Assembly: GCA_030704615.1 (NCBI GenBank)
Contig: CM060731.1
Coordinates: 7,068,001 to 7,132,000 of the forward strand
Direction: 5' to 3'
DNA length: 64,000 nt
Source of the DNA: Takakia lepidozioides
Lineage: Eukaryota; Plantae; Bryophyta
Shown here: one piece after another, positions 6,038 through 53,657 of the stretch
Layout of the letters: each line of letters opens with the position of its first letter
Numbering within the stretch: the stretch's first letter is position 1
The notes under the pieces: model-generated
Seen by the model: only the letters and a program-made list of their open reading frames with translations
Database searches by the model: none
What the model was told of the DNA's origin: nothing
Translations under genes and position numbers: made by a program

Positions 6038-7781
<1,744 letters not shown>

Positions 7782-8611
7782 GTACTGACAACTACTGGAA
7801 TGAGAATAAAATAATCTGGCATTTCTATACAATCATTCAATTCGAGTTGAATTGAACTGGATTCTGTATTCTTTCAATATCAGTACATCGTGTCCAAAGC
7901 TTGTATGCTGCAAACTAATGTCTCTTGTAACGTTGCTGGCCGAACTTGGAGCTTGACACTAAGCTAACCCTTGCATGGTTAATCTCTGAAGTTCAACTTG
8001 TTAGTCTTTAAAAAAAAACAGTACATCACAATTGTAAATCTGAATCCTTCTGAAATTGCATTGCACTCCGAACCTCGCAACATCTGAACATCACCTTTTC
8101 GTCGAAAAAACCTGGCACCGAAGCTAACATTGACATTGCAAAGTAGAGCAGGCTGTTTGGTCACAATGTCTCTAGACCTTTAGATATACCTGGGGGAAGT
8201 AGATTACTAGATTGTTACCCGAGATATACTTCGGGGAAATAGATTGTGAAGTACGATGGCTTCACTGATAGAACATTCATTCTCCCCCTCCACAAAGGAA
8301 ACTGGAGCATAGCTTCGAGAGTAGCATCCCTCTTTCATTGAAAAACATGAGGAAATGTAACATAACGGCACGGAATACTAGTGTCGCACGCTCATGGATG
8401 AGGTGCAAACCACATGGTTTGGATTTTCCCGATAAGCTAAATATGCGGGGCGGTTACTGTTTAGGTTCTAATAATGCCAACGGGGTTATGCAGAGCATTA
8501 GTGCTGTCGAGAGTGATGAGAGAGGGAGAGAGAAATAAAAGGGGCAGCGAGTCTGGTGTTTGTGAAGTGGTAGTTGAGGAGCGGAGAGGGAGGTGAGGGG
8601 GTGGGGCAGCG

Positions 8612-21539: not shown

Positions 21540-23003
21540 GTTGTCATGGTTTTAGTCATGGTTAACTAGAATTACCTACTTCTAGTTAACTAGGACATTT
21601 TAGATATTTGTATTTATATTTTGTGTGTTGGGACTTGTGAGGTATCAAGCCTCACTTGGGAATGGGGATGGTTTTCCCCTTGTGAGGGTTGAGGAGGGCT
21701 CATCTTCTTGTAGTTGAGCCTCCATAAGCATCTCTCACCTCCATAGCTCTAGGTATTGAGAGGAAGTGTGTTGAGGGCTTTGTAGGGTGGATTCCCTTAG
21801 CAAGGGTGCCATTGGCTTGACTTAGTTTATGTGATTGAGTGGATTCATGAGTGGAGTGTTTTCATTGTGTTCACTTTCATTATCACTACAAGAAGATGAC
21901 CTTCTGCTTGTGAGTGCGGAGTGTAAGGATTAGTTTAACACTTATATTGGTGTACACCAAGGAGTGAGAGAACTAGGAAAAGCTCAAGTATCTCACAAGG
22001 CTTGCAAAGTGTTGCAAGGAAAGGTGCTTGGTGAAGTTGCATGCACCAAGGAATTGGAGAGCTACGAGAATTTAGGTCTTGTATCACAAGGCTTGCAAAG
22101 GTTGCAAGGAAAGGTACTTGTGGTGTTACACCAAGGTGTTGGAGAGCTCAAGAAGGAGCTTGTACCACAAGATTTGCAAGGATTGCAAAAGGGAAATCTT
22201 GTGTGTGTGGAAGCATGGATTTTAGGGATTGATAATCATTTCTATGCATTATAGAGTCAATGGTGTGTGCCATGGCATGTGGAGAGCAACTAAAGGATTG
22301 TTAGTGCTCATTTCACTATCAATCTAGGGTTAAGTAAGTTCAAAGTGTGGAAGAGAAGCCAAGGAGCTGCATAGGCTTGGGCTTGAAGACAACAAGGGCA
22401 AGTATTTGGAGAGCATTAGGAAGTTCAAGAGGTTTGGAGGGGAGAATGTGATGACCAATCAGACCATCATTGTTTCTCTTATGGTGAAGCTGGGTTGATG
22501 ACCAGCAGACCATATGAGTGCTTGCGGTGGATGCAGGTGCGGGTGCAGGTTTACGTTAGAAACCTAGTATTCTAAACCGTAAGCCGCAATAGATTATCTA
22601 CCTGGTGGAAAAGGGAATTAGAGACAGGTTTACAACCGGCGTGGTTGTGAGTCATCACGGATGTGCCACCTGTTGTTGAGGGGAGTGCCGGTACGAGCAC
22701 CACCGATACTAGTGGGTATACAAGACGAGGTGTGCGGTTTAGGCCACCGTCATCTTTAGTGTCTTCTGAGGAAGGTTCAGACTCAGAGTTAGGAGGATTC
22801 TCGCCAAGGGTACAAGCCATTTCCGTGCCATTGTTGTGGGATAGGATGGAGGAAATGGATGAAGCTACCAAGGGGCCACGTCGGTATTCTGGAACTGTGG
22901 GCACCATCGAGCTTGATGATTTTATACATGAGTTTTGATAATTGGTGTGATTTGCAACAGATATGTAATCCACAACTGTTTACGCCTTTTATGGAGTGGA
23001 AGG
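21540..23003 (+). mobile_element. 5' part (LTR/leader + start of gag) of a gypsy-type element of the same family as the DNMT-carrying element at 43983-52767; truncated by the chromovirus insertion
   Basis: gag start GYTRRGVRFRPPS...KGPRRYSGTVGTIELDDFIHEFDNWCDLQQ aligns with 49938-50510(-). Leader 22448-22660 aligns with 50490-50710(-). Three ~80-90-bp tandem units at ~21994-22205. Confidence 0.85.
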
Positions 23004-23588: not shown

Positions 23589-26500
23589 TCACCCCCTCCT
23601 CTAGCGCCGAGTTCTTCGAGGAGCGGTAAAATCTTGGACTTGCTTAGAGCTGGAGAAAATCCAAAATCCGGCAAATGGTACTTGTCAAGTATTCGGCTCT
23701 TCGTTCTTGACTCAAATGATTTACAGGTCCCTGCAACCATTGATAGTGTCCAACACCTTGAATTTGGGACCACGCAGTGATTTGAGCATTCTGATTTTCG
23801 AAATTGCCTTCAAACATTATTTCGTTGTCATTTGGGTCAGAAGCCTCAACCTCCAACAGAATTATCAGACTTCGAGTAGGCTTCATTTGCCGTCGTACGG
23901 GGTCCAGACGAGGAAGTACGCGTCGCATTGGTGGCCCATCATCTCGAGAGCGTCGGCGTGATGTTGAAGGTCGTGAGAGTCGGAACTGCTGATCTGGTAG
24001 TTGGGTAAGCTACAGCTCCAATGTATCTGGTTCATGTGACTCCATGCTGCCAATACAAGATGCAAGAGTGCTAGAAGTGTAGCTATATATATATATTGAT
24101 GTGTGATGTTCCTTCCTCCTTAGCGTGTATCAGGTACACTGAATGTTGAGTCTTCACCTTGAAGCTAACTTGGCTGACATCATCGTTGTGACGTCTTATT
24201 GACGAGTAGCTTCGGGCTTAGCTGGATATCGTTGATGAAACTCTTGGACTTTGTCAGATGCATTAGCGAGATTGGATGAAAGTTCCCACATTCGTTCGCT
24301 GATGTCGTAGCATTTCCAATGTACAAAATACTCAAGTCATTTATACTTGATGCGAGAGTCTATGACTTCGTCAACTTCATACGCGTTTTCTGGTTGACGT
24401 CGATTGATGGAGGTGGTACGGAGACTCTCCTTGGAATATTTGATGGATGATACAACTCCAATAATGAAACATGAAAGACTGGATGGATGCGCATACTTCG
24501 TGGGAGTTCAAGCCGAAAACTGACATGATTTATTTGTCGAATAATTTTGAATGGTCTCAGGCCTTGATAATCCAACTTCCTTGATGGTCGCGAGGTTTGT
24601 ATGTCTCGTCAAAGAAACCACACACGATCTCCGACCTTGAACTGAGGTTGGAGTTAACAATGTTGATGTACATACTCCTTGTATTGTTTTTGAGCTTCTG
24701 CGAGGTGGAATGTAAGCTCCTTGTGAATCATAGCAAGATGAGTAGCAACGTTTTCTACAGCAGGGCTTCCAACAGTTTTCATATGGAAAGGGTTTGCTCG
24801 AGGATGATGACCATAATTGGAGAAAAATGAAGTTTGCTTAGTCGAAGAATGTATAGTGTTGTTATAGACAAACTCGGCTAATGGCAGAAGGTCCGTCCAA
24901 TTATCTTGGTGATAATTTATCGTACAACAAAGATATTGCTCCAAAATCTGGATAATGCATTCGGTTTGACCATTAATCTGTGGATGATTAGCTGTAGAGA
25001 GGTTGATCTTAATATCCAATATATGAAATAATCCCCTCCAGAAATTTGATATGAACTGTGGTCCTCGATCAGATACGATGTCCTTCGGGAGTCCATGAAT
25101 ACAGTAGATATTATTGAGGAAGAGTCTTGCAATTTTCTCGCCAGTAACCGTCTTATTACATGGAATGAAATGTGTCATCTTCGTAAAACGATCCACAATA
25201 ACAAGGATTGAGTCGGTGGTCTTGGAAATTGGAAGGTCCGTAACATGTGTCACAAGATTTTACAAATTCTTTCACGAGTTTCCACACTTGCGGCCACCAA
25301 TAGTCCATGGATATCAATTCCATTGTTTTGTTGAAGCCGAAATGTCCTGCAGTCGGAAGATCATGACATGTTTGAAGAATTCGAAATCGTGTAGGTCCTG
25401 GAGATACATAGAGAAGTCCCTTGAAATAAAGTAAGTTATATTTGAATTTGAAGTCGTTTGTAATATGTGGGTTGTTTCGAGGTCGATTTAGTTGACTTCG
25501 TAATGTCGTGGCAAATTGGTCGCTCTTCAGTGCTTCTTGAATCTCCTTTATGATCTCTACATCGTCATAGGTGGTCATGGATAGCATATTCAATTGGGGA
25601 TTTGCTAGTTTCAAGATGATGAATTTATGTTGGTCCAAAGCTGCATCCTCTTCTTTTGGCGCAAGATACGATCGTCGAGAAAGAGTATCTGGTTTTCCTG
25701 GAAGATGTCTGGGATGATAGGTAGTAACAAAATCAAGCTTTGCTAGTGACATACTTCATCTCACTTGACGTCGATTCAAAACACGAGCACTTATAAAATA
25801 CTCGAGGTTTTTGTGGTCGTTATAGACAATGATCTGATGTTTAGCTCCCTCTAATAGATGATGTCATTCTTCAAAAACATCGATAATTACTAGAAGTTCT
25901 TTGTCATGGATTTCATAATTGATCTCCGCAGCGGAAAATTTGCGAGAACGAAAATCAACAGGGTGAAGTCGGCCATCTATACCATATTGAGATAATACCG
26001 CACAAAGTGCAAAATCCGATGCATCTGCTTCCAAAAAGAATGATTTAGATGGGTCTGCATGTACTTGGAGCCGTTGTAAATGCCTGCTTCAGCCTTTCAA
26101 ATATTTGGTCAGCCTTCTCGTCCCATACAAATTTGTCTTTCACTGTTAGTCGTGTCAATGATGCAGCAATTTTGGAATAGTCATTGATGAAGATTCTATA
26201 GAAATTTGCAAATCCTAGAAAACATTGTACATCTCGGACCAATTTAATCCATTCAATGATGGTTTGTATTTTCTTCTGATCCATAAAGACTCCTTCGTCG
26301 GAAATAATATAGCCCAAAAATTTGACTTCAGATTGGTGGAAAAGACATTTTTCCAATTTGGCATATAGTCTTTTTCCCTCAATTTATCAAGGACAAGGCG
26401 TACATGGCGACCATGTTCTTATTCATTATGTGAAAATATCAAAATGTCATCCAAATATATGACTACAAAGTCATCTAAAAATTCTCGAAAGATGTCATTC

Positions 26501-27134
26501 ATCATGTGTTCAAAAATTGCTGGAACATTTGTAAAACCGAAAGGCATAACACTGTATTCAAAATGTCCGTACCTTGTGCGAAAAACAGTCTTCCATTCGT
26601 CTCCTTCTTTTATTCGTACAAGGTTGTAAGCTCATCTCAAGTCGATCTTTGTGAAAAAAATTTGCTCGTCCAAGTTGTTCGAGGAGTCCAAGAATCAGCG
26701 GTAATGGGTAACGATTTTTTATAGTGACTTTGTTGAGCTCGCGATAGCTGCTGCTGCTCAGTCACCCCCCCCCCCCCCCCCCTCCGTCTCACATGCGTAA
26801 CGATCCGTCCTTCGTAGATAGGTGCTCTCGCGGGTGATTTCGAATGTCGAATGAAATTCTTTGACAAATTTTTATCAATGTATTCGCGTAAAGCAACCAG
26901 CTCCGTTTGAGATAAATTATAGATCGGGCCGAATGGTGGTTGAGCTCCTTCTTGCAACTCAATTGCACAATCATAAGGTCGATGTTCTGGCAACATGTCT
27001 GTATTTTTCTTCTCGAAGACATCCTTGAAATCTTAATATTGAGTGGGTAATGTCGAAGTACCTTGGTCTGTTGTGGTTTTGATCGGAGTCGCATAAAGTG
27101 CAAATATCGCGTCTTTTTTCGTAGCTCTCATAAA
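23004..27134 (-). mobile_element. Ty3/gypsy chromovirus (Tcn1-like): 3' LTR, chromodomain, integrase, RNaseH, RT; gag, protease and 5' LTR missing; degenerate
   Basis: [13 protein letters not shown]...PIYNLS (RT start), [16 protein letters not shown], integrase [19 protein letters not shown] and a chromodomain (EYFVHWKCYDISERMWE) at ~24250-24400. Confidence 0.93.
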
Positions 27135-31910: not shown

Positions 31911-34900
31911 GTTTTTTTTTATATCTTTTTGCACTTTGATTTTTTTATTTTTTTATTTTTAATTCATTCTAGTTGTCAGAGTCTCCGTTTTTTCAAAATA
32001 TAAATACTCATATATTATATATATAACCAGAAAAGAATGTGTCGACACGTGCAGTCATGTAGCGATTCATCCATGTGATGATCTGGCAGAATGCATTAGA
32101 GTGAGAGTCATGAAGTCATATGTCTGTCTAGCAATATGCACATGTCATTCCAGTGTAGCCATGACCGTGACTGGTAGTCATATCTGCCATGCCAATATTC
32201 GTGGTCAAACATGTTTGACCTGTGTTGCGCAGAGTCCGGAGCCATGTAGTCGCATATACGCCTTCCCCAGACCTGCATTATGACTTCAAAAGCATTTTAC
32301 GACTGCAAACGGCATTTCTGCCACAAATATGTCATGACTGCACACCCATGGGAGTCATAAAAGCCGCAATCTGTTGTAGTGCTCCCTATCGCCCCCAGTA
32401 CCCGGTGAGTGGCCTCCCTATTGTCATTCCCTTCCTTATTTTCGACCCATCTCCCTTAAACCCCAACAAAGGTAACGTGTTGTACCTCAGAACCAGGTCA
32501 CCCCTGCCATGTGCCTAGAAAATTCTACCCTCAATTTCCTACACTCTATCAGATGGAGACTTTTCGATGTATTTTGGAGTAGGGTCTGGACCTCTTCCCC
32601 TGGCCATACCAGATCCTCTCAAACTTTATTCTTATCTCGGATTTCTTCATGCAACTTTCGGGTAGACCTAGGGTGGTGCGCACATCGTGGATGCCCTACT
32701 CAAAGATTCAACCTCTCCCGGGGGATGACTCATTCTACCAACATAGCCTGAGCACCCTTATCATGGCCATAGAGTTGGACAAGCCAGTAGATGCAGCCCC
32801 ATACAATCACTTCTGGAAGACAACCCTATTGCCTTCTGATAAAAGAACTAAGTTCCATTTCCATTCAGACAGGCCATCATTTGAGTCCTTCCCGCTCAGC
32901 CTGACACACCTACAAGATGCTGGTTAGTTTTTCCTCTTGGAATATAAGGGATTTTGGCTCCGACCACTCAGCCCTCAAGAAAATTAGGCTGAGAGCATGG
33001 CTGGCTCCCCTTATCCCAACTGATGCCATTGTCTTTCTGCAGGAACATAAGCTAGATGATCTCAAAATTAGGAATCTTTCTGATAATCTGTGGCCTCTTG
33101 CTTCCGCTCTCTGAAAGCCTTCATCCGAAGGATCAAGGGGGGGTACAACCATCCTCCTTTCCCCTTCCATTAGGCAATTTTTGGTTAAAGATGAAATTTG
33201 GGAGCTGGGAAGGGTCCAGTTCTGCTCCCTGTTGCTCCCGTCAGACCCGAAACCCGTAGGCCTGGTTAACATTTATGCCCCTAATAATGCAATGGATCGT
33301 TCTGCCCTATGGGAGATGATTAACTTGAACATTTGCAGCCATAAGGAAATCAACAATTGGGTTCTAGGGGGGGACTTCAATAGAAGGGGTTCTGCGACAA
33401 CACCCCTCAACCCGGAGGAAGAGGCAATATGACATTCTCTCCTCCAAACTCACAGCCTGATGAAAATCCTCCCTGACACCCATCTTAATCTAGGCTCCTT
33501 CCCCCACTTCACCTGGTCTAACAACAGGGCACTGGAACACCTCAGTATGGCCCGCCTGGATAGATTTTACCTCTCGTTGGCTTTATCCATCAATGCTACT
33601 AGAAAGCCGCAGGAACCCATTGCCCATGGTTTTGATCACGCCCTCATTGAAGCTTCGCTGTCTTTCCCTAACGCTCATCGTAGAGGTAGGGGTATTTACA
33701 GGCTAAATTCCTCCCTTCTCAATATTCCATCCTTTAAGCAGGCATTAAAGGATAAATGGCATAATTCAGGCAACCATTTAAACTGCCCCATAGAGAGATT
33801 TACCTCTAAGCTGGCGGCTACCTGTAGATGCAGCCAGATCCTTAGTAAAGACATTGCTGCAGCCAGATCCAGGAAGGTTAGAGCCCTTAAAAAATGTCTT
33901 GAGGTGTGCCAAATAAAAATCAAATCTCGCACATGCGATGTCCATACGATTCAGACTTACCTTGAGGTCAGATTCAATCTGGGGATATTTCAGGAACAAC
34001 AACAGGAAAAAATGAGAATGCAAGCAGGGGTCAATTGGTCTGCCAAAGGTGAGAAAATGTCTAAGTATTTCTTTCAGAAAACCAAGCTTAGAAGGGCCAT
34101 GCAAACCATTCCTGAGTTATATATTGACAGTCAGGGCAACAAATCTTCCAAACCAAAGGAGCTCTGTGGGATGGCTTTCAAGCACTTCAGCTCCCTGTTC
34201 CAAGCAGATCCGGTGGGGGTGGACAACATCCAGTTGCTTCACGCATGCCTGCAATCTACCCCCAGTCAGTACAGGGAAGGGGATGACCAACCCTTGTCCA
34301 AAGAACTCACCCCTATGGAGCTGGAGGATGCTCTGGACCATATGAGCAAGGGTAAAACTCCCGGTCTTGACGGTATGCCAATGGAGTTTTACAAGGCCCT
34401 CTGGCCTCGCATCGCTCAAGAGTTTTGTGACATGGCAAATGAAATCCACAGGAAAGGTGCTATGTCAGGTTCCATGTCTCAAGGGGTCATTACTCTCCTT
34501 TTTAAAAAAGGGGATAGGGCAGACATTAATAATTATAGGCCCATAACGCTGCTTAACGTGGCCTATAAAATTATTGCCAAGGCCCTGGCTCTCAGGCTCC
34601 AGCCCCTTCTCCCTTCGTTGATTAGAACAGGTCAAGCCGGTTTTGTAAAAGGGAGGTATATATTGGATAATGTCCTTCTGGCCCAGGAGGCGGATGCATA
34701 CGCCAGGGCATCAAATCAGGCGCTGGCACTCTGGCTGCTTGACTTTGAGAAGGCTTTCGACAAAGTGGGTTGGGACTTTCTTCTGCCGGTTCTGCAACAA
34801 TGTGGGGTGTCACCTTCGTTCTGCAAGTGGGTTATCCTTATCCGCAACAGCTCCAGCAGGGTTATTATTAATGGTCATTTGTCAAAACCCTTTGCACGAT

Positions 34901-36852
34901 TGACACCTTCTGCAAGGTATCAGGTTTCAGGGTGAATTGGTCGAAAACCAAGGCTCTTCTGGTGGGAGATATTTCAAAGTCAGGTCTGGGGGTCTCCCCT
35001 GTATGGGGGGCTAACTTGGGATTGATCTGGCTCAAGGAAGGGGAGTCCACCACCCTCTTGGGCCACGTCTTCGGGATTAATCTCTCTGAAGACCAACGTC
35101 TGGGACCCACTATAGCCAGGCTGAAGGGGCAACTAACTTTCTGGGGCTCTCGGTTCCTCTCCATTTCTGGGAGAGCTCTGGTGGCTAACCAGATCCTTTT
35201 GGCCGGTATTTGGTATTTCGCCTCAACCTGGAGCCCCAGCTCTAAACATATCCACGAAATCAAAAAGTGTATTAGAAACTTTATATGGGGGGTCCAATCG
35301 TTGGACTCTAACAAACGTCCCCAGGTCTCTTGGATTCAAATCATAATGCCCAAGAAAATGGGTGGCCTCGGTGTCTTGGATCCTGAAACCTAGATCAAAG
35401 CCTTGTTGGGAAAATGGCTCCCCAGATTCCTGAGTCCAGAAGCAGGATGGTGGAAACCTATGGTTCCCTCAGTTCACCCCTGAGCTCCACTCAATGGTCT
35501 CCATCTCTAAGATGGATCACTCAAGGTTATCGTCATAAATCCCCTGCCTCCTTTTGGACCTCTATTTGGCTGGCTTGGGGGAAGTGCAGCGTAAAAGAGA
35601 GCCTGCTTCCTTTTGTGAAGTGCTCAGGCAACACCTATTCCTAAACAAGCCAGTCCCATCAGCAGTGGAGAGGAGCCAAGCTACAAGATGGGCAGGGTGG
35701 GATGCAAGGGGGCTCTCATAGGTCTCCCATCTATGGTTCAGTACCCCTGTATCTCTTTCCAGAACTCTAGGCACCCAAAGACTCTCTGCCGGTATTGCCT
35801 CAGTTCTGCAATCAATTCCAGACTCGTGGAGGGACATTCTAAGACAGGGCCCATCCTCTCCGTCTCTTTATCAGTGGGTGACCACACCTGATCACCATTT
35901 TCAGGCCATGTTCATAACGGAAGCCTCGTGTGATAACCTGGTGGGTTTCGCATTCAGGGCCCATCTGTATATAGGTGCTCTCTCGCTGCACTCATCCAAC
36001 TCCATCTCAATCATATACAAACACCCCACCAGCCAGAATCTGCCACTGGAACTCTAAGCTCAAAGATTTTAATCCATCCCTACCATCCAACATGCAGGTT
36101 CTACCATGGTTATGATCAGGAACCTTCATATGGATTGGAGGCCAGTCCATCCAAGATCTGCAAATCGACCCGGCAGAATGGCAATGGGAACCCAAAAAAG
36201 GGACGACAGATGGGGCTTATTCCAATTTAGAGAGGAAAACTGGAAGTGCATATGGGCTCCGATTTGGGCAAAATCAAAACCAGCCAAACTCAGTGCCTTT
36301 CTTTGGCAGATTGCAAGTAGGGTTTTGAAGGTTGGGCAATTTCTAAACTTCCAAGAGGTTCTACTCTGCAGATGCTGCCCCATTGGGGTTATTGAGTCTT
36401 TGGAACACTGCCTTCTTTTCTGTAGAGGGCCGTAAAAAATCTGGCCCTTGGTTTGGTCACTTTACAGGGTTTGGTCAAACACCGCTCAGGACCCCATAGC
36501 CCTCCTGCTAAATTACAACCAAACAACCAAGTCCAAGGTGTCCACATGCCCAGTATTCGAGGCCCTCCGCTTGGCAACACTATGGCAAATCTAGAAGGCT
36601 CGGTGCAGATGGACATTAAACAATGCTTCCTCCTCCTGTACAGAAATCCCTATGATGTTACTATTGCAGCTAAGTTGGCCTGGCAAAAACCATGTCCAGA
36701 AGCAGACAGAAACCTGAACGAAAAGATTCCCTCCTCGCCTACTTCAGAGCATCTTGGGGAAGAGGAGGAATCATTTGTTGCATCATTGATACGGACTCCT
36801 GTACATGGGCAGACTCCATACCTGAACTCTGGAAACACCGATGGGGCACCGT

Positions 36853-41689: not shown

Positions 41690-44421
41690 GAGAGAGAGAG
41701 AGAGAAGACTCCGGCCAAAGCCGACGTAACTAAGAGCCACTTCGCCTCATGGCTACTGCCCCCTCTCGGGGTCCCTCTCTAAAAGGTGTCCATAGGACAC
41801 TAGGAGCCTAGAGGAGCAAGGTACCGTGGGTACCTGGGGTACCTTGGGTACCCTAGGCACCCCATGAGTCAGAGAAGGGTTAGATTCGAGTTTACGTTTG
41901 TTAGTAATAATAGTTGTGAGGGAGCGGAGGGCTGTCAGGTGTATTGCTTTGAAACATTTATGAATGGAGAGGATAGGGAGTTTAAAGTTAGTGTGTAGTG
42001 CATCGATACTGGCGTTATGAATGCCGCCTCTAGTGCCAGCCGTGATAACCGTCAAAGGACCAGTGACCCAACCCTTATGTCGGAGCGCAAGGATAAGTGG
42101 CGCATATTTTAGCCGTTTGTCTAGCATTGAGTCAGCGGGGTATCGATCATGGCAGTATGTGAACTCAATAAAGTGGATGGTAAGGTTCGGGGTTGGGGCG
42201 GTGGGTGGGGGGGAGTTTATGGGTAAACCATGTACAAGCAAGATGTCCGGGCATAGTCTGGCGGGGCAAGTGCAGGGGGAGGGGGAGCAAGTACAGGGGA
42301 GAAGCCAGTGTGGGACAGTGTGGTCTGCGGGTCGTCCTTGGTAGGTGCCAGCGTTGATTAGCGAGAACCATCTCGTCTTGGCGCGATGTAGGAGGAGTTT
42401 ATGGATGTGCCAGACTGCTTGGTTATGGCGGGTTATACGAAGCCCGTGGATGACCGGGTGTGTGCATTGGCTAAGAAGGTGTGGCCAGGTGTCACGTTCC
42501 TGGTGGGTATGAGAACAGAGGGGACAATGCGGCCAGAAAATGTGTTTACGCTGATGTCCCATATGTTGTGCGTATCGGAATTTAAAGCGTTTGTTTGATT
42601 TGGGCGTCATAGTAGCTAGCTGCTTTGGAGTGCCAAAAGTAGTTTGAGAGTTTGTTATGGAGTACTGCGGATTGTGTCCATTTCTATATGTATATTTTAG
42701 TGTGGTTAGCAGATACCGAGGTTTGCTTATTGGCTTCTCGAGTAAGGGTTTTCAAAAGGTTGCGTATGGGACGAGGTGCAAGGGGGTCGGGTACGGGGTG
42801 TATTAGCCAGAATGGGTGGGTATGTGCTATGTGGATGGGATCATTGGTAGGGTCAATAGGGGGTTCGTCGGCACCTTCCTGGGCAAGAAGGTCGGCAGCC
42901 TCGTTCCCCGGATACCTGTGTGTGCGCGTACTTTGATAAAGTGAATGGTGGGTTGGTTGATGGAGATAGCCAGGTTGGCGATGGCTGTGATGAGATTACG
43001 GTCAGAGTGATAATGGTGAGAAGATGGGCAGGAGAGGTGGTTGCGGATGAGAAAGAGAGGTGAGGCTGTCTGTGAAGATATAATGTGGAGGGGAGAATGA
43101 GGACAATTGGGTGAGCGCTTCAAATATTGCCATTAGTTATGCACGAAGTATGGTAGCAGGACCAGGAAGTCTGTGAGCGGTGCCCTGATTGGTAGCAGCA
43201 TGGTATACTCCATAACATGCATGGGAGCCGGTGAGGGAGCCGTCGGGTGTAGTGGGAGTGGGATGGCGGAAAATTTGGAAAGTATAATTTGGCAATAGGA
43301 TGGGAGGGGCGGTGGGGAGGGAGGGAGCGTTGGGTAAGGGACGGGCGCAGTATCGCCCTTTTCCATGCCTTGCTTAAGTTAATCCTAGTGAGTGGGCCAG
43401 GTGGGGTGAGGACTGGGTGTGTGAGATGGTGGGGGTAGATGGTGGTTTTTAGCTTGTGAGTGCGCTTAAGGAATTGATCCAGTAAGGCAGGGAAGGTGGG
43501 AGGTATGGTGGGAATGCGTGGTGTGGTGGACATGAAGGAGAAGGGTAAGGGTGGGTTCTTTGTAACGAAGGATTGGGGAGGGGCCGGGTGTGGATGTACC
43601 GGAGCTGGTTAGGTTCGATAGCAGCGAGGAGTGAGGAGTGTTACGATTGTAGGTAGGGTTGGGGGAGGGGGTGGGGACTGTTGGGTAGCTTTTGGTGAGT
43701 GAGTAAGAGGATCGTGACGTTTGATGGGAAGAGAGTGTGTGGCCATACGGGCCCATTGGAGGGCCCCATGTGTGAGGGGGCCTGAAGGGGGTGGGCAAGC
43801 AATCCCCTCCCGCCCCCATGCGTGTTGGGTGGCATGTCCGGTGGCTCCGAAGATGCAGTCTCGGGGGTGGGGGCTAGCAAAAGTTGTGATTCCCATCGCG
43901 CATGTAAGCGGACTGGAATAATATGAATGAGTGAGTTCGAAGGTGGTAACAAGCAGAGAGAGGATATCAGGGGGGATGGTAGTGTCGTGCGCATACATAT
44001 CGCTACACAACTACATCGTTGTCCAAAACCACAAAACATGTGCACACCACACACTAGTATACCACTAGTCCACCACTAGTCCAGCCACTAGATCCAAAAC
44101 ACTAGTCCAACCACTAGGCTACAACTAGTCAGTCACTAGGCTGCCACTATGCTGCCTACTATGGCAGTCACTAGTCCACACAATCGCCCCCCTAGCTGGT
44201 GCTTAGGTCCCTCTAAGTTCAGGTAGCCACAAGATGTGATAGTGACCATAGTCCTCCACCACTATCCCTACTACACTCCAACTCGATAGATCAAGAGGCC
44301 GGGTACAAGAGTTGCCCCATCGTTAGTCGCCGTCTTGCAACCTGTGAACTTTGACTCCTATGAGTTTGGCCTCCCATGTCTTGTGAGCTGCCACTAGTCA
44401 TATCCACTGCCACTATCCCAA

Positions 44422-44553
44422 GCAGTGTGGACATAACCAAATCCATCAGGAACCCTCTCAAGAGGTGGTGTCAAGTATCCCATGTGCCAACCTCTGAGCA
44501 CGATCACACACCAGCATAGTGGCGGCACCACGAACATGCCCACATAGCATGCA
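44422..44553 (-). other. PHD finger at the integrase C-terminus (frameshifted)
   Basis: Reconstructs as CMLC-x7-MLVCDRC-xx-GWHMG(Y)LTPPLERVPDG-x-WLCPHC: a C4-H-C3 PHD pattern with one Cys>Tyr change. Confidence 0.85.
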
Positions 44554-44666
44554 ACGCAATCCTGCAGGTACCACTGCAAGGTTGGGATCTATCCTCCAAT
44601 CCACATGTGGAAGATGACATGGCGCACAATTATGCATATGGTCCTTCCATACCATGCCATCTCGAC

Positions 44667-44971
44667 CCTCCAGAATCAACACTCCTGAAGGCAACACCGC
44701 CCTAACCCTTAGAATCACACGTCCTGCTGTTGTGACATCCAGGTCGTAGCGTTGTCTGTTGCAGATACACATAGTCCCCAGTGGTGGGGGAGGAAACGCC
44801 GAACACCTGGCGCCAATATCCCCTCCAGAATCAACACTCCTGAAGGCAACACCTCCCTAACCCTTAGATCACACGTCCTGCTGTGACATCCAAGGTCGTA
44901 GGCGCTGTCTGTTGCAGATACACATAGTCCCAGGGTGGAAACGCCGAACACCTGGCCAATATCCCCCTCCA
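44667..44971. repeat. ~155-bp tandem duplication in the integrase C-terminal region
   Basis: CTCCAGAATCAACACTCCTGAAGGCAACACC...GCCAATATCCCCCTCC occurs twice with small indels. Confidence 0.85.
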
Positions 44972-44989
44972 CGTATAGTGGCATACCTC

Positions 44990-45900
44990 AATGTGTCTCG
45001 GTGTTGGACAATAGCAAGATTCTCATAATAGACGCAGGCAAATCTGGCTTTCGGCCAAAGAGAAGGAAATATGGTGAGAAGGAGGCAAGTGATGCTTGCT
45101 TGCTAAACCTGTAGCCCATAGCTAGCCAAGGTACCTGAAGATCCCAATCTCCTAGGTGTCCTTTTTGCAAGCCATACTTGCGCAAACCCCTCTTCACCGT
45201 CTGCACCACTCTCTCTGCCTCCTCAGGATGATCCCGAGAAGTGGTACAATGGTCTATCAAGGCTTTATCACCAAGCCGAAACTCCCCCAAACTCCTCTCC
45301 CTTGGTCCGTGAGTACCTCAGCTGGAACACCGAATCGGCTAAGCACACGATCCAGGAATGCATACGCAACCCCCTCACTAGCTTTGTTAGGCAATGGAAC
45401 CAACTCAATCCACTTGGAGAAGTGCTCCACCATCACCAACACATATTTGTGGTGACGCATCGTCAGTGGCAAAGGCCCTGCAAAGTCAAGACTCCACCTG
45501 TAGCCCAATCCCATGATGGGTAAATGATGCAATTGTGGTGTAGGGGCGTTGAATGAAGCACGCACCCTGTCACACACCATGTACCTAGCCACGAACTATT
45601 GCACCTCTGTGTGCATACCACGCCACCAATACTGCCCCTGCAGTAAACTATGAGTGCGTCGCACTCCAAAATGCCCAACTCCTCATGGGCATGCCGCACT
45701 AACCGTGCACGCTGTGTTGGGTGAGGCACAATCCTCACCCGACCATCCTCCCACACTCGAAGCAGGTGTATCCCCTCCCACTTGAACCTCTTGGCTCGTT
45801 GTAGGATCCGATCCGTCTCCTTGGTAGTCACACTAGCTGCCGTGTCTCCAGTGCGGAGGTAGTCCAACACAACCGAATCCTCATGTATATCTCTGGCACC
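44990..45900 (-). pseudogene. Gypsy-type integrase (H2C2 + DDE core)
   Basis: AHEELGHFG...YWWRGM...VCDRV, WSLDFAGPLP, EHFSKWIEL, VLTDQG, AERVVQTVKRGL, SPYFLLFGR. Confidence 0.93.
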
Positions 45901-46619
45901 ACCTGACTCATCACTAGCCTCAGGGTCCTCAGACACTCCGTCCACAGTCATCCTGTGTAGGTCGAACCTGACTCCCGAAGCCAAGATACACAAAAAGGCA
46001 GATGCATGCCATCCCGGCACCATCTCCTCGTCCGTCTCACCATGCCACCGAGCTCCAGTGTCATCCGCTGGCTCGTGCATGGATGCGACTCAATCCATCC
46101 GAATCCCTATGACCAAACACGGTCGATGTACAACCTGAACATGTCTCTCGTGCTCCTCCACCGTAGCACGAGAGGCAAAGCAATTCCTGTAAGCCTCAGG
46201 AACCGCCGTATACGTCGTCTCTCTCCTCTGTGACAATAGGTCCAATGTTAGGCTCCCATTGCCCTTCGTAACTGCAACCTTAAGTCCAGCAGACTTAGAA
46301 GTAGAGGACGCATCCGTGGTTGCTATGCCGCAACCCTCTTGAGCCGTACTCCCTGCCTGCTCAGGCAATGACAAGGCCCTCATCCTGCCCCATCATCTCA
46401 TCCTTGAGGACCTCCTCAACCTGAAGAATCCCCAACCTCATCCCTCACAGCCCGCCATTGGCTGCCACCTTTTCCCTCTGAACCTCGAGCACCTCCCACG
46501 TGTGCCATGGATTGTCTACACCCTGTGGTCCTCACCGGCTCGCCCCACCACTGCCTGTACCGTCTCAAGTAGGCAGAGAGACTGTGTCAAGGGAAGTGTA
46601 CTCCGCACTCTGCGTTGCT

Positions 46620-47580
46620 CAAGCCATAGCCAAGCTGATAATCCAGGTCAAGCAATTGATCCATTGCTTGCCCCAACACCTGACAACGTGATGCCTCAGA
46701 AAGAGACGACAACCGCCGTGGTACCAGTGGTAAAAACCCATTGCCTGCTCACGCTCGTCAGCATTAGGCTCCACTAACTGCTGCAACTGAGCATCCCACA
46801 AGAGGCAAGGTCCACTATCCCGGAAAGCATGCGATCCTGGGAAGTTGAGCAGTGTAGGTAATGCTGCTCGTGGTTGACCCACCTTGTTAACCACTGCCAA
46901 AGGCGAACGGTCATCGTGTCTCACACGCCGAGACTGCCTCCCTGTGTCCAGAATGCTATCCACTGTGAGATGTGCTGGCCGCTGCACCCCATCAAATGCA
47001 TGCTTGAGCAGTGCGGGTGGCATCAAGTTAGTCCATCATAGCCGTGGACGATGAGCCCGTGACCCCACTGTAGCTGCATCTAGCAACACTGCTGACCCAA
47101 GCCACGACCGGACTTGATGCACACTGGCCATTACCCTGGCCCGAGAATCGCTCATCAGTGGCACATTCTCCAAGATGTATGCTGGAGATACAGCTTGATG
47201 AAGCTGCAAGTGGCGCAAAACCCGCACCATCTCCCAAAACAGACCCAACCTTGAATCTCGCAATCCATTGCCATGCCCGGCTGATGAATGCCCTTGGCAG
47301 GGCCAACCTGCCACTACCAGATCAATGGAGCCAACCCGCTCCAAATTTTGCGCCCCCAGCAACGAAATGTCTGCTGGCAAGGCCTGCTGATATCCACGAA
47401 CTGCAGACACCGGCAACAACTCAAGGTATTACTGCACCAACTGAGCAACATGGCGAAGTGAAACGCGTCGTGCAGTCTCATCCCTCTCCACATATAGGTA
47501 ACACCGAACTCGTACACTGCCTGTAACACAGCAGCCAATCCGGTGCTGATCCCGCCAAACAAGTCCAGAAGACAAATGTC
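46620..47580 (-). pseudogene. DNMT3-like DNA (cytosine-5)-methyltransferase domain within the retrotransposon pol
   Basis: Motif I LLDLFGGISTG, II YLYVERDETARRV, IV DLVVAGWPCQGHS (PCQ 47294-47302), VI YILENV (47162-47170), VIII LLDAATVGSRAHRPRL(W)WTNL, IX EPNADEREQAMGF, X VLGQAMD. It has a few 1-nt indels and two stops. Confidence 0.93.
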
Positions 47581-47989
47581 TTCATCCGGATACTGCCACA
47601 CAATAGGTGTGGTATCCAATGGTAACAACGGAGGTGGTCCTGGTGCAATCCCCACACTCTCCTCCTCTCCTGATGGTACAAAAGCCTCCACCCAGGCTTG
47701 TTGCACCCGTCGATCAGCAACCCGCTGCAAATCCTTGCTCGTGCCCCACAATGGAGTCTGAGCAACCATGGCAGGCAACTCCACCATACCATACATGTCA
47801 TCCTGCTCTAGAGATCCCAGAGGTGACACATCCTCTGAATGAGCGTTGCCCTCTAGCAACTCTGCAGGCTAAGTCACTGCAGCTGTGAATGCTGCTAGTG
47901 TCGGCATCTTGCCCCGCTGGGCAACTGCAACTCCTCCTATGAACGTCACAGAGAGCTGCACACGCCGGCCCTCCCCTGAGTGCCATCTA

Positions 47990-50510
47990 GGCCTATAAGA
48001 AGCTGACTCCTCCCAAAAATCCAGGGTGAAGCCCATGGGGTACAACACTGCCCCACCAACTAGGACATCGTACGATACCGCGTCTGTCACAATGGCCTTG
48101 GCTTGCATCACTTAGCCATCTATAGGGTGATCCGGCCATAGTCTGATAGCCAACTCACGCCGTGTCATGCCCCGAGCCTGCTCCGATCCTCCCAGAGACG
48201 TCTATATCTGGAAAGGACAAGGCTCCATATCCGCCTCCGTGAGGCCCAAGCCTGCAATAACAGCTCTGCCCAACATCAATGGCTGAGCTCTCGAGTCCAA
48301 CAAGACCCGCAGTGGCCGGTACCTCTTGCCTGCCGGTCCACTCAAACAGAAAATGCCATCCTGGTTGTCTAACATGACAACTCCAGGTGTCACCATGGCG
48401 CGCTCAATGGTTGGCCTAGCTGGCAGCTCCATCAACCTGGCAGCTGCAACTTGCCATGGCACCGCCGTGGCAGTCTTGACCCTCAAATCCGAGGATCCCT
48501 CCGGCACTACACCTCCCACTATCTCCGCAGAAGATGAAGTAACCTCCCCACTCTCACAGAGTGTAGCTGCCAGCCTGAACACCTCAGCTGGTCTTACCCC
48601 CGGCGTCGCAATCATGGTAGCCGAGAACAATGGAGCCTGACACATAGATGTGGCCGCTCCTAGCAGCACACTAACTGTCGTAGCCTTGGCAACATTAGGT
48701 AGTGGTGCTACCCGTGTAGCTCTCCCCAATGGCATAATAACCTCCGCCTCGGTAACAGTCGGGTGAGAACTAGGTGCCATGGATGGCGTCGACACTGTCT
48801 CCGCCAATGTGAATGACTGAGGAAGCCTAGCCTGACGGCTTGCCTCCCCACGTTGTGGATCCAACTCCACCTCTGCACCTTGTGGCTCAGGAACTCGTGC
48901 TGCTCCTCGAGTCATGGTTGCAGCAGACTCCACCTGCACTAGTGGTAGTGCTGCTCCGTACATGAATCCCATGCCTCCCATATCTCCTCCCTCAGGAGCA
49001 GGAGGTGGACCATCCGGCCTTGGAGCCGGTACCACCTGAGCTCTAGCCATGGCAGCAAGCCTCTGCTCTAGCAGCTGAAGCCGGTTGGCCATGCCTTGGT
49101 CAACACCCTGACCTCCGTGTTCTTGGCCATGTTGAGCTTGCCCTTGGCCTACACCCTGTGCCTGGCCACCTCGTCCTCTTTGGGCTGCTCCCCCTCGCCT
49201 CCGGCCACCATTGTTCCCTTGGAACTGGCCTGGGCGCAACTTGGGATGCAAACCATAACACTGGGCCTCTCCATGCTCGTGCTTGCCACAATGCCCACAC
49301 TGCAACTGTGCAGGCTCTGCATGTGCCGGCCCTTTGCCTCCCTCTGGGCAATCCTTCTTGACGTGGGGTCCTCCACATGTCCAACACATCACATCCGCCC
49401 GTTGTTGGCGTGCAAATGAAGGGAGAGACCCCTGCATCTGAGGTCCTCTCTGCCATTCCCTGAGCTTCACCTAAGCCCCCTTGTTGCCTTGAGCACGTTG
49501 AGGTAGTGGTTGGCTAGGAGCACCACTACCCCGTGGTGTCTCCTTAGCAAATCCCACCATGACCACTCGTTCCTCCACCATGTTGAGCTCTATCCGCTCT
49601 GCCAGCAAAAACACATTTGCTAAGGTGGGTTGGGCCGCTTGTAGGAGAGTTGCATCCCGCACCCTTCTCCTCAGCTCCTTGTCCAATATCCCATACCAGA
49701 ATTGGACTGCCTGAGCTTCCGTAACCCCTTGGGTTATATTTATCAAGCGCCTCATGCGAGTGAAAGCCTCCCTCAAGCTCTCAGTAGGCTTCCGTTGGAA
49801 CTCTTGCAAGCTCCGCAACTTCTCTGTCCTCACCCCTTGGTAGTTCCCTCTCAACTCTTCGAAGAACTCCACAACAGGGTTGAAGGCAGGCACGGGTACT
49901 GGTGCTGGTGCGGTAGTGGCTTGGGTGGACGTCGTAGCTACGGTACCACTAGTCCTACTAGTCCCACTGCTGCTTGCTGAAGCTGCTGGTGCAGCGGCAG
50001 GTGTAGCCACTGCCCTCGTGACTCTAGTGCCCCTAGTGATGGAGACATAGTCAGGTGACCAGTACATCCTCCACTCCTCGATCTCATGCCCCCACCTGAA
50101 CTCATGGTAATCATCCATAGGCGGCCCCTCAAGGTGCTGAAACAGCCCCTTCCATGCCATGATAGGCGTAAATAGTTGTGGATTGCGCATTGCTGCAAAT
50201 CACACCAACTATCAAACTCTTGGATAAAATCATCCAACTCGATGGTGCCCATCGCCCCAGAGTACCTTCGTGGCCCCTTGGTAGCTCCATACATCTCCTC
50301 CATTGTGTCCCACAACAATGGCAAGGAAACAACTTGCACCGCCGGTATGAGTCCTCCTGATTCACAATCCGAATCAGAACCTTCCGTAGAAGACACAAGA
50401 GGTGAAGGTGGTCTAAACTGCACACCTCGTCTCATGTATCCACTAGTATTGCTAGTGCTGGAACCGGCACTGTCCCCAGCAACTAGTGGTACCTCCGTGT
50501 TGACACTCAA
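47990..50510 (-). pseudogene. gag, two zinc knuckles and aspartic protease of the DNMT retrotransposon
   Basis: Retrotrans_gag-like FQRKPTESLREAFTRM; CWTCGGPHVKKDC and CGHCGKHEHGEAQC; RVLLDSRAQP...YDVLVGG. In-frame TAG at 49471-49473. Confidence 0.85.
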
Positions 50511-51239
50511 CCAGTCATGAACATGTCCCTAACCCCCTCTCCACAAGGTAACCGGGTAGAGAACCTGTTGCGGCTTATGGTTTGGAATACTAAGTTCATA
50601 ACATAGCCTACACCTGTACCTGCATCCACCGCAAGCAATCCTATGGTTGGCTGGTCATCACCTCCAACCTCACCACAGGAGAAACAATGATGGTCTGGTT
50701 GGTCATCACCCCAGCCTCACCATCGACAACATGCTCTAGGACTGGCCGGTGATCAAATCCGGACCAATCACCTATAAAAACAAGCACACACACAAAACTA
50801 GCATGGCGCACAGTCAAGCATGCAGGTATAGAGGGGATCCAAACACAAGAAATCAGAACGACAACTCCCCCACATAAAAAACAACTCCTCGGTGTTGCTC
50901 CTGCAAGGACACCCCAGCCCAAACCCGGACTGACTTTTGCCTCCACCTACGGAAAGGTCTTGGCCTAATGAGAGGGTGGAAACTATGAGGAAGAGAAGCT
51001 AAAGCAATGCCTAACCCCAGCATGCCCTCATCCCAACATTCTTCCTCTCCTCTCTTCCCTCACTTGCATGACCATGGGAATATCATGAAGATACTCCTCA
51101 AACCGCCCTCCACGAGCTTCAAAATTCGGCCTTGAAGACCACATGCCAGTCCTTAGGCCGTCCACTAGTGCCTCGACGAGTCAGCACAGGCCATCCACAG
51201 GTCAACACGGGCCACCACAGACCAGCATAGGCCCACACA

Positions 51240-51777
51240 GCTCACTGGTCACAGCCGTCACAGCCCCACACAGACCACAGCCTGTCACAGCCCCACAGGC
51301 TGCAGCCCATCACAGCCCATCACAACCCCAAAGGCCACAGGCACATCCTATCACAGCCCTACAAAGGTCACAGGGTCATAGCCCCAAAGGCCACAGCCCG
51401 TCACAGCCCCACAGGCCACATGGCACAGCCTGTCACAGCCCTACACAGGTCACAGGGGTCACAGCCCCAAAGGCCACAACCCCTCACAGCCCGTCACAGC
51501 CCGTCACAACCCCACAGGCCACAGCCCACAGCCCACCATAGCCTGTCACAGCCCGCCACAGCCCATCACAACCCATCACAACCTGTCACAGCTCACCACA
51601 GCCTGTCATAGCCCCACAGGCCACAGGGCACAGCCTGTCACAGCCCCTCATAGCCCGTCACAGCCCCACAACCCACAAGGCACAGCCCCTCACAGCCCGT
51701 CACAGCTCGCCACAGTCTGTCACATCCCGTCACAGCCCCACAGGCCACAGGGCACAGCCTGTCACAGCCCCTCACAT
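51240..51777. repeat. Low-complexity (T)CACAGCCC-type tandem repeats in the 5' leader of the DNMT retrotransposon
   Basis: Dozens of CACAGCCC/GTCACAG/GGCCACAG units. Confidence 0.9.
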
Positions 51778-53657
51778 AAGGGAAGTCAGCCCTTCCCTCT
51801 TCCTTGCTTGCCCTCCAAGCTTGAAGATGGAAGCTTCAATGAGCTGAATACATGCTCCACACATGCAACCTCTTCATACAAGAGGTATCGGCCCCCTATC
51901 TTGGCTCCTTGGCTCCTTGATCTCTCTAAGACAAGACTAGACACTCCACAGCCTTTGCCAAGCTCCTGAAACCCTAAGGCTTACATTTCCAGCCACAAGA
52001 CGCTCCTCTTGTGGTGCAAGAGCTCTTTTTCCAAGCTCTGAAACCCTAGGTGCATATTCCATGGCCTTGCCGCACCTCTTAGCTCCTGTTCCAGCCCTGC
52101 TCTTGCCATGACAAGAGCCCTCTCAATGCTGAAGCTCGAGATTGAAACCCCCTCTCAACATACTCCACAAAGTGCACTGATTTGCCCCAAGCCAAATCAG
52201 CCCTTTCGCTTGGTCTTGCAATCCTTCACACAATGAAAGCTCGCATTCCCAAGTCCAATTCTCAGCTCTGCCACCAAAGCCACTATAACCTGCTCTTGAC
52301 TGGTCCTCTTCCCAATCGTGCTTGCTCATGCATGTACACAATCTGAAACCATCAAGGTGCTCTGGAATTACCTGCAGTATGGTGCTTTCATCTCTGAAGC
52401 TGAAGATCGAATGCCAAGGTCTACCACCTTGTAACCCACATCGCCTCCGCTTCTAACAACCAAGAGCTCCATGGTGCTCCTTGCATAACAACTTGGTTTC
52501 TCTCATTCTCAAGCAAAAACCACAAGTGCTACAACCAACTCGTATCTGGCACTCACAGATATGAGCTCATCTTTCTCGAGTGGGGAATCCACACTACGGC
52601 GCCATAGCTAGGCGCAGTGAGGCTCAACTCGAGAAAGATGAGCCTCCCGCGCTTGCCGTGAAGATAATCACTCCAGGGCCAAAATCTGCCTTGACCCCTG
52701 GATTGACACTTGGGCCAATCCCAAATGTCAATATGTAAAAGCTAGTTATTTCCTAGCTAGTTTCACACTAGTGGTAAAATAATTTGACAGTAGTATGAGC
52801 AAAGGCTTGTGACAGTTTTGTCAGGGAACGGGGTTTTTTGGGAGGAGTGTCTTGGAGGTAGCGGGTAACAAGCCAACTGAGTTCGGTAGCAAAGTCTTGG
52901 CGGGGTGGGTGGATTTGAGTGTCACAGGGGGAGGAAATAGAGTATTTAGCCCATAGCCATGCTAGTCTGTCATTGGGAATGAGGCCAAGAAAACAGCCGT
53001 TGAAGATGTAGATAGTGGACATACGAGGGCCTTGACAGATTGTGGGGGAGGTGTGTAGGATATCCTTATCTGGATTGCATTCAGTAATGTGTATGTGTAC
53101 GTTGGGGGCGGTAAGTGGTTGATGTACGTGACGGGCATCTTTGGGTTGGGATATAAATAGCAATTTAGCTTTTTCTATTTTCCCAATCTAACAAATCCTT
53201 ACATTGGCTCTAAGGATATTAAGGGATCATTAGAATAAATGTAAAAATTATGTTAAGGTTTATCTTCTTCGTCATGGTTGACCGATTTGTTTTCCCACTC
53301 TATGAAATCCCTAGAGCGGCTTAGAACGCTATAAGGGATTCTTACAACGAACGTAAATAAGTTTATTTATTTTATTTGTTTTTTAATTTAAATTTAAGAG
53401 ATCCTTACATTGGGTCTAAGGGATCATTAGAATAAATGTAAAAAATATGTTAGTGTTTTTTTTCTTGGTCATGGTTGACTGTTGAGGCCGTATGGCACCC
53501 GTTGAGATTTAACTGTTCTTCCCCTTCAATATTTCAACTATTAACAATATAGTTGTTTGGCTAAAAGTAATGTGATTTTTTGGCTAAAATATATTAGGGT
53601 TTAGCCAGAACTTGTCGACGTGGCCTTCTGTCTTGCCGAGAAACAAAAACTTGGCAC

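Follow-up and report, generated by a model that had tools for sequence, protein, structure and literature searches.

A dead copy of a high-copy Ty3/Gypsy-type retroelement family carrying a DNMT3-like cytosine methyltransferase in Takakia lepidozioides

Several retroelements carry a C5 cytosine methyltransferase of their own. According to the accessible text of the papers cited here, the kind closest to the present locus, Gypsy-DNMT3, was described as KnitGypsy-Dnmt3 of Klebsormidium nitens (de Mendoza et al. 2018, PMC5890265) and later cited as streptophyte (PMC12344493, bioRxiv 10.64898/2026.05.21.726589). SymbioDIRS-Dnmt3 and SymbioLINE-Dnmt (PMC5890265) are likewise retroelement-borne C5 methyltransferases, the former with split direct repeats and with CG methylation observed in yeast. 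EpiLTRs and DAM-LTRs (bioRxiv 10.64898/2026.05.21.726589) are LTR elements that encode DNA methyltransferases of their own together with a chromatin reader. The DNMT of these elements is near DNMT4, a DAM and a chromodomain are present in addition, and the authors deem them distinct from Gypsy-DNMT3. On the host side, the moss enzyme PpDNMT3b (PMC6453930) has a DNMT3-type catalytic domain with the same linear motif order as the element described below, but host DNMT3 enzymes carry DUF3444 and are encoded by ordinary genes, whereas the DNMT described here is an intronless element cargo.

The locus described here lies in a 64,000-nucleotide stretch of Takakia lepidozioides DNA, which we call the window. 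Like KnitGypsy-Dnmt3, as portrayed in the available text, it is a Gypsy element whose polyprotein region includes a DNMT3-like domain that is unpermuted, free of introns and conserved in its catalytic residues; a Ka/Ks of <0.2 is reported for KnitGypsy-Dnmt3 (PMC5890265), and the ratios between subfamilies given below are in the same range. The hosts differ, a land plant being concerned here, and so does the reading frame: a conserved stop parts the DNMT from the reverse transcriptase (RT), while the authors of the 2018 paper place both in one ORF. Such a common ORF is found in the algal relatives but not in the bryophyte copies, in which the frame is shared and the stop lies between. The repeats of KnitGypsy-Dnmt3 have the DIRS-like layout A-coding-B-A-B (figure legends of PMC5890265, Fig. 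4c), which is matched by two loci (L020 and L026) and by joints in sequencing run X1, whereas the window copy and most relatives read A-coding-B. The window family thus works like KnitGypsy-Dnmt3, sharing all compared features except the ORF common to DNMT and RT. Compared with the known Gypsy-DNMT3 elements, the hosts are land plants, the DNMT is followed by a conserved stop, and the split ends are resolved.

An earlier note on this DNA, made from the letters alone, knew of no characterised family of this kind in embryophytes, and the literature agrees as far as it was accessible. Marchantia and Sphagnum are not mentioned in the available text or text supplements of PMC5890265, nor a methyltransferase or PHD finger in the available main text of PMC6317226. 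No account of the land-plant family, the stop between DNMT and RT or the junction was found in a body of literature that included few subscription papers, including the accessible parts of PMC11982613, PMC6317226, PMC6453930, PMC9985172, bioRxiv 363937 and bioRxiv 2021.11.30.470311.

The copy in the window is 8807 bp long, lies on the minus strand and has the form A-coding-B, with A and B denoting its 5' and 3' terminal segments (Table 1). Its limits are marked by the contig depth of the sequencing runs, which rises by at least two orders of magnitude between ~43980 and 52790, and by empty-site contigs of run X1 that join 43977 to 52789. It begins with TGTC, finishes with GACA (TG..CA type) and is flanked by a 4-bp target-site duplication. 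The description as an LTR retrotransposon given in the earlier note is correct for the Ty3/Gypsy-type character of the element but not for its ends, as a blastn self-search of the copy (word 7, E <=1) found no paired LTRs and only one internal 155-bp duplication. The copy is dead and RT-deleted. Its RT leftover consists of ~30 codons of the RT-proximal region fused to the last RNase H residues; hence, of the placement of the DNMT between protease and RT remnants claimed before, the protease motif upstream stands, while the RT side is reduced to this scrap. A 2173-base contig of run X12, guessed to be RNA, aligns to both sides of the RT deletion with ~1.3 kb extra between. Of 15 translated pieces scanned, one matched PF00145, one rve (1.5e-10) and one, weakly, Retrotrans_gag (PF03732, E 0.0019, below the cut-off); PF13650 was weakly matched by the region of the relative P0049 that is homologous to the window protease. 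A truncated relative elsewhere in the window is broken off by other retroelement sequence.

Table 1. Position of the element copy, its parts and a truncated relative in the window.
Feature	Position	Strand	Basis or remark
Whole element	43983..52789	-	X1 depth step, empty-site joint, ends, self-blast
4-bp target-site duplication, 5' side	52790..52793	.	End comparison
4-bp target-site duplication, 3' side	43979..43982	.	End comparison
Start of 5' terminal segment A	52581..52789	-	Loose ends in X1, X6, X12; analogy to loci L005-L025; inner limit approximate, other copies depart from the window copy at 52581
Degenerate 10-bp tandem array, 5' leader	51180..51776	.	Sequence
gag with zinc knuckles at 49386 and 49299; a single frame break, a single stop	49260..50303	-	
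Aspartic protease region, LLDSRAQ at 48303-48283	47950..48303	-	Lower limit approximate
DNMT3-like C5 cytosine methyltransferase, motifs I-X	46620..47580	-	Three frame breaks, two premature stops
Conserved in-frame stop TAG (46325-46323), then CAACCA	46317..46325	-	Likely readthrough signal closing ORF1
Remnant of RT-proximal region	46174..46258	-	Followed by the deletion of RT and most of RNase H
RNase H C-terminal tail	46085..46134	-	
Integrase, zinc-binding part and rve core, broken	44990..45950	-	PF00665, E 1.5e-10
Internal tandem duplication of ~155 bp in integrase tail	44666..44971	.	
PHD-finger remnant	44422..44553	-	tblastn to P0028 PHD region; cysteine pattern; PF00628 in intact relatives
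Polypurine tract AGGGGGG, directly before segment B	44187..44193	-	
3' terminal segment B	43983..44186	-	Last 35 nt 86% like the end of the Sphagnum-type family
Truncated relative: TGTC 5' end, leader, gag start	21542..23003	+	78% over 570 bp

In the six-frame translation, the C5-methyltransferase motifs I-X follow each other in linear order on the minus strand between 47568 and 46659, as had been noticed before, but are scattered across all three frames: LDLFGGISTG (I, 47568-47539), YVERD (II, 47494-47480), AGWPCQG (IV, 47311-47291), ILENV (VI, 47176-47162), AHRPR (VIII, 47056-47042), EREQAMGF (IX, 46756-46733) and LGQAMD (X, 46676-46659). The frame breaks lie near 47516, 46711 and 46657; the two premature stops occupy 47431-47429 and 47038-47036. 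The profile PF00145, which the earlier note had proposed to search after repair of the frameshifts, matches even the unrepaired middle piece of the domain (E 1.7e-13, 51 bits, cut-off 22). Contigs of the runs X1, X6 and X8 differ from the window copy at its three DNMT frame breaks, so that the breaks are not family-wide.

The domain is widely shared. Run X1 placed 94,218 contigs on the window and the tiny run X6 501. The DNMT is as deeply covered as the remainder of the element, which also bears out the expectation that other members carry it; contig depth is no measure of the number of copies, and the source sample may be X1. In X8, from a second organism, a 1735-base contig across the DNMT shows 79 differences from the window. 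Altogether the element or part of it is present in the sequencing data of five studies, and hence it belongs to a high-copy family and is not a one-off capture. A word-seeded protein search returned 37 proteins of 472-2000 aa that are 46-75% identical; the 20 with an organism name comprise 16 from Marchantia polymorpha, two from Calypogeia fissa and two from Sphagnum, and an exhaustive search gave 2218 clusters at E <=0.001 and 81 at 1e-30. Retroelement domains were found in 102 of the 107 homologues of at least 600 aa. The DNMT precedes the RT in 38 of these long homologues (bryophytes, Closterium, Mesostigma) and lies between RNase H and integrase in 64 (Scenedesmus among them), so relatives of the element occur in Marchantia, Calypogeia, Sphagnum, Closterium and Mesostigma, and in reordered form in Scenedesmus. 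Thirty look-ups of names among the homologues gave members from Closterium, Mesostigma and Scenedesmus and none from Klebsormidium. The domain order of the window family is Gag, protease, DNMT, in-frame stop, RT, RNase H, integrase and PHD finger. The Ty3/Gypsy order protease-RT-RNase H-integrase is seen in L021, P0006 and P0049, and the PHD finger follows the integrase in all complete relatives. No tyrosine recombinase was matched, the domains being instead an rve and an H2C2 integrase.

In a FastTree phylogeny of the DNMT (91 rows), the window copy falls within a 23-row clade (support 100) that contains all named bryophyte rows and the metagenome copies, the latter grouping with Sphagnum; in the RT tree the bryophyte-containing clade joins Closterium (91). 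DNMT and RT distances are correlated (Spearman 0.57, 0 of 999 permutations, n=61), which shows long joint descent only loosely because kin share distances. Narrow scans of viral and prokaryotic contigs gave 149 and 20 pattern matches, none of which was confirmed, and phage C5 enzymes match at 25-27% identity. These comparisons would fit a long residence of the family in streptophytes and do not appear to support a recent prokaryotic donor or a recent horizontal acquisition. Of the two origins considered previously, inheritance from streptophyte algae is thus in line with the relatives in Closterium and Mesostigma, while horizontal acquisition, at least a recent one, is not supported.

The kind of enzyme was assessed by profile and fold. 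A profile search against the PDB ranked DNMT3A (64 bits) and DNMT3B (56) before DRM (41), HaeIII (30), HhaI (27) and DNMT2 (19). The predicted structure of the relative P0007 (pLDDT 85.7, pTM 0.86) had only DNMT3A/B/C among the Foldseek matches listed, the best with an E of 2e-18 and a target TM of 0.81. These searches place the domain nearer to DNMT3 than to enzymes of the DRM, DNMT1/CMT, DNMT2 or bacterial types, which upholds the earlier assignment as DNMT3-like; the domain is also intronless, as noted before. The catalytic Cys is present in 88 of 91 aligned rows (the other three being gaps) and the catalytic Glu in all 91, and both are kept in each of 23 DNA copies; Cys (motif IV), Glu (VI) and the Arg of motif VIII are nearly invariant from algae to bryophytes. 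The Pro of motif IV is replaced by Glu in 36 of the 91 rows.

Selection was estimated on 22 of 33 loci plus the window copy, leaving out seven duplicate or short and four algal-type loci; L025 and L026 are possibly one insertion. For the DNMT, comparing the Sphagnum-type family with L021 gave a dN/dS of 0.18 (21 pairs), and comparing it with the window copy gave 0.10 (14 of 21 pairs computable); both ratios are rough because dS is near saturation. The corresponding values were 0.08-0.16 for Gag, 0.16-0.25 for the protease, 0.10-0.17 for the integrase and 0.07 for RT. Inside the Sphagnum-type family the ratios were 0.57 (DNMT), 0.43 (RT) and 0.58 (integrase); the 0.57 is expected for decaying copies. 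The DNMT ratios of 0.10-0.18 between subfamilies are not neutral, neutrality being an outcome that the earlier note had counted against its reading. Taken from sequence comparison, then, the DNMT domain is common to the whole family, DNMT3-like and under purifying selection.

Between DNMT and RT, 23 of 25 loci that span the linker have a stop followed by CAACC; this corresponds to 19 of 20 distinct insertions, and in the exception the linker is interrupted by an insertion. The stop (TAG in 15 cases, TAA in eight) lies 80-94 codons past the DNMT in frame with the RT. The window copy reads TAG CAA CCA at 46325; of four runs, three cover the site, and none of these lists a variant there at a threshold of 5%. 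At the protein level, five entries from Marchantia, Calypogeia and JGI (P0001, P0002, P0004, P0008 and P0013) terminate at approximately the same distance past the DNMT, five Marchantia or Sphagnum gene models omit the stop site, and seven algal-type proteins continue uninterrupted into the RT. A UAG followed by CARYYA is an established signal for readthrough (accessible text of PMC4132726 and PMC3441728); the hexamer is exact in the window copy and L021, while the CAACCC of the Sphagnum-type family is one base off. Tobacco mosaic virus (UAG-CARYYA) and the gag/pol stops of Tca2 and VdLTRE5, as described in the same papers, similarly have an in-frame stop before the polymerase with CAR-YY, but here the stop follows Gag-protease-DNMT and not Gag alone. 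An RNA structure 3' of the stop is at most suggestive: single-sequence z-scores were -2.0, -0.6 and -1.0, the covariation term was 0.06, and the three two-sided changes in the tested helices are single cells in the same alignment from which the structure was drawn.

Because the stop and CAACC are conserved between DNMT and RT, Gag-protease-DNMT is likely ORF1 and Pol its readthrough product. The DNMT, previously taken as part of the polyprotein, is thus in the polyprotein region but in bryophyte copies would close ORF1 before the conserved stop. Most ribosomes would halt after the DNMT and a minority would read through, and an enzyme encoded in ORF1 would be produced at the Gag level; we consider it probable that particles took up the DNMT in amounts similar to those of Gag and greater than those of RT and integrase.

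The ends of the element are split. Eight bryophyte-type loci reach beyond the PHD finger, of which one is interrupted, five finish at the end of segment B, and two (L020 and L026) continue as B1-AT-A2-B2, with A2 repeating the 5' end. Long copies hence read A-coding-PPT-B-NN-A-B (PPT, polypurine tract) and short copies A-coding-B, the short form being that of the window copy and of five of the seven loci whose 3' end is intact. B1 and B2 are direct repeats of ~115-125 bp, ~370 bp apart. The tract AGGGGGG stands directly before B (B1) in the window copy and in six of seven loci searched. A terminal repeat is absent in L019, as in the window copy, while L020 and L026 have split repeats and share the junction palindrome GACA-AT-TGTC; in run X1, contigs of low depth connect the end of the window family with its start through GACA-GC-TGTC and variants. 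Of eight distinct loci with a 5' side, six begin at A and two lack it, and a 4-bp duplication was found in all four copies with both ends (three loci and the window copy). L020 begins with TA, and L019 and L020 end in ACA variants. One locus without A (L018:6461) begins with a second TGTC, located where A ends, and has a perfect 4-bp duplication, and L008/L010 carry an inverted copy of segment B at ~6340-6575, where A would be. When compared with one initiator-tRNA motif, a primer-binding site was not matched in L020 and only at chance level in the window copy, and no self-priming match of >9 nt was found.

In the accessible text of PMC5890265, DIRS/PAT-type split-direct-repeat elements share the A-coding-B-A-B layout with an internal end-to-start junction, but RT, RNase H and integrase of the window family are of Gypsy type and its junction is a CA-NN-TG palindrome; DIRS elements use a tyrosine recombinase, while the window family has a DDE-type integrase and 4-bp target duplications. 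A parallel for the cut itself is offered by HIV-1 and foamy virus integrase (PMC1905944, PMC1180852, as far as accessible), which cut a palindromic junction symmetrically, behind the CA of each strand. HIV-1 integrase cuts its own palindromic LTR-LTR junction in vitro, with four bases between CA and TG and not two (PMC1905944). Retroviral junction cutting is a side activity on circles, while here it is proposed as a regular step with the junction encoded in the element.

As the ends are split around a palindromic GACA-NN-TGTC and most copies are A-coding-B, the arrangement suggests that the integrase cuts the internal junction. Standard plus-strand synthesis from the PPT copies B-NN-A, so that the left end of the cDNA would carry B-NN before A; contrary to this prediction, the inserted copies start at A. 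The integrase would remove B-NN by a staggered cut after each CA, leaving processed ends with 2-base overhangs. A single cut would leave the long form, which can be copied again, whereas an additional cut at the 3' junction would produce the short form, a dead end. That this sequence of PPT synthesis and staggered cutting gives both forms is a tentative reading, to which we assign slightly less than an even chance. The same degree of belief is due to the alternative that the integrase never cuts, the left end being made by another step and the short copies, the window copy included, arising after insertion by recombination between B1 and B2. The two direct repeats would permit such an exchange, the 4-bp duplication would be preserved likewise, and the short forms are explained equally well. 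The prevalence of short over long forms speaks against recombination, as does the position of the PPT before B1 and not before A2: standard plus-strand synthesis would place B-NN at the left end, yet all six distinct loci that keep A begin at it. A further candidate, short forms as assembly collapses, was rejected, since B1 and B2 differ by 6-9% in long copies and the window copy is short too. The readthrough model has its own rival in Pol expression by reinitiation, splicing or a separate transcript, which we regard as somewhat unlikely. Most copies of the Sphagnum-type family have an in-frame ATG two codons past the stop, and gene models join across the stop site; the ATG, however, is missing in L021, L019 and the window family, and stop-CAA-CC is retained across subfamilies with saturated synonymous sites, with the frame preserved through the stop. 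Against readthrough itself stand the eight TAA among 23 stops and the algal relatives, which function without a stop.

Concerning the role of the enzyme, the DNMT likely methylated the new DNA of the element inside the particle. The protease would free the DNMT, which would methylate the cDNA before or at integration, so that new copies arrive pre-marked, and the PHD finger would help to choose the chromatin for insertion; this full course of events we hold to be a little better than even. No scar of self-methylation beyond the host background was detected in CG depletion or in C/T differences among copies. CG depletion of the element is 0.51, with 0.31-0.95 in other sequences of the window, and the C/T differences have a CG/CHG/CWH pattern explicable by host enzymes. 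The missing scar would agree with a domain kept for DNA or RNA binding or for RNA methylation and not as a DNA methyltransferase, and so would the Klebsormidium enzyme, which gave no methylation in yeast, a result its authors deem inconclusive (accessible text of PMC5890265). Such a module is nevertheless quite improbable in view of the near invariance of Cys, Glu and the motif VIII Arg in algae and bryophytes and of a fold and profile that are DNMT3-like and not DNMT2-like. An action on the host side instead of on cDNA, with the DNMT tethered through the integration complex and PHD finger and methylating the insertion site or adjacent chromatin once the copy is in place, or working in trans on the genome, draws on the PHD finger behind the integrase in all complete relatives and on the chlorophyte-type elements (64 of 107 long homologues) whose DNMT adjoins the integrase; in bryophytes, though, the DNMT is in ORF1 with Gag and away from the integrase, so that a particle component fits better than an integrase partner, and we judge the host-side action improbable. 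A one-off capture of a host DNMT3 gene or retrocopy by the window copy, or a chance juxtaposition, is refuted by family-wide depth, shared position and selection and is practically excluded: the DNMT has the depth of the rest of the family in four runs and occupies the same position in Marchantia, Sphagnum-type and Closterium elements, and the DUF3444 of non-flowering-plant host DNMT3 (available text of PMC6453930) is not seen in the element.

Overall, we favour with moderate confidence the reading of the locus as a dead copy of a high-copy Ty3/Gypsy-type family whose DNMT likely methylated new DNA of the element, with a proposed leaky stop and junction cutting. It is unlikely that all parts of the strongest version hold together, namely an ancient green-plant lineage, extending from algae to liverworts and mosses and lacking paired LTRs, that would have combined an integrase-cut CA-NN-TG junction with a leaky stop loading active DNMT at the Gag level for methylation of the cDNA ahead of insertion. 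The question raised in 2018, why a retrotransposon bears an enzyme of host silencing, becomes testable in Marchantia polymorpha: 16 annotated family proteins are known from this species, the annotated ORF1 proteins retain every motif, and mutants in methylation are available. On dose, the conserved stop suggests that the enzyme likely reached the level of the capsid. The split ends, in turn, point towards an integration route so far known as a side activity of retroviral integrases. For genome annotation, Gypsy-DNMT3 elements are missed by finders of LTR pairs. Liverwort and peat-moss genomes list their ORF1 among the host genes, under the name 'DNA methyltransferase', and DNMT counts can be inflated in this way.

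Some relatives have features of their own. L030:1-6803, an algal-type DNMT element with an intact frame of 1997 codons, contains two CAG/CTG sites where ~218 are expected (both strands), without CG depletion; this near-total avoidance of CWG is perhaps a scar of its own methyltransferase or of that of its host. In L030 and L031 the PHD finger is followed by an adenine-methyltransferase-like region (DPWAG...) in the C-terminal 300 residues, which in L031 weakly matches a D12 N6-MTase (E 0.006). Some members may thus carry both C5 and adenine methyltransferases, recalling EpiLTRs but with a DNMT3-like domain. P0368 (Logan, 2112 aa), a polyprotein of Copia type (PF07727), contains a distant C5-methyltransferase-like domain around residues 453-740 (24% identity, E 8e-14), possibly a separate capture by Ty1/Copia.

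In the window, the element sits inside another repeated retroelement (41750-43978 and 52794-53190, minus strand), for which X1 has empty-site contigs. This interrupted retroelement has stretches that, by their motifs, appear RNase H-like and endonuclease-like; its Atlas look-alikes have zf-RVT in 25-42% of members, and a weak PCIF1_WW match (E 0.0009) was found. A decayed, unrelated Gypsy element at 24650-27130 (minus strand) shows no CG depletion (0.95), and a LINE-like element at 33430-36450 (plus strand) a strong one (0.31). Of three host genes, that at 6250-7781 is presumably alpha-tubulin and that at 16828-19485 presumably an intronless PPR protein ending in DYW. At 8597-9850 lies a RETICULATA-related gene, 60-78% identical to its best 120 matches, whose position suggests a bryophyte, perhaps a deep-branching moss or a hornwort: in a midpoint-rooted tree of 46 rows it is placed on the Sphagnum/Ceratodon side, with weak support for its sister rows, and outside vascular plants and liverworts (97/89).
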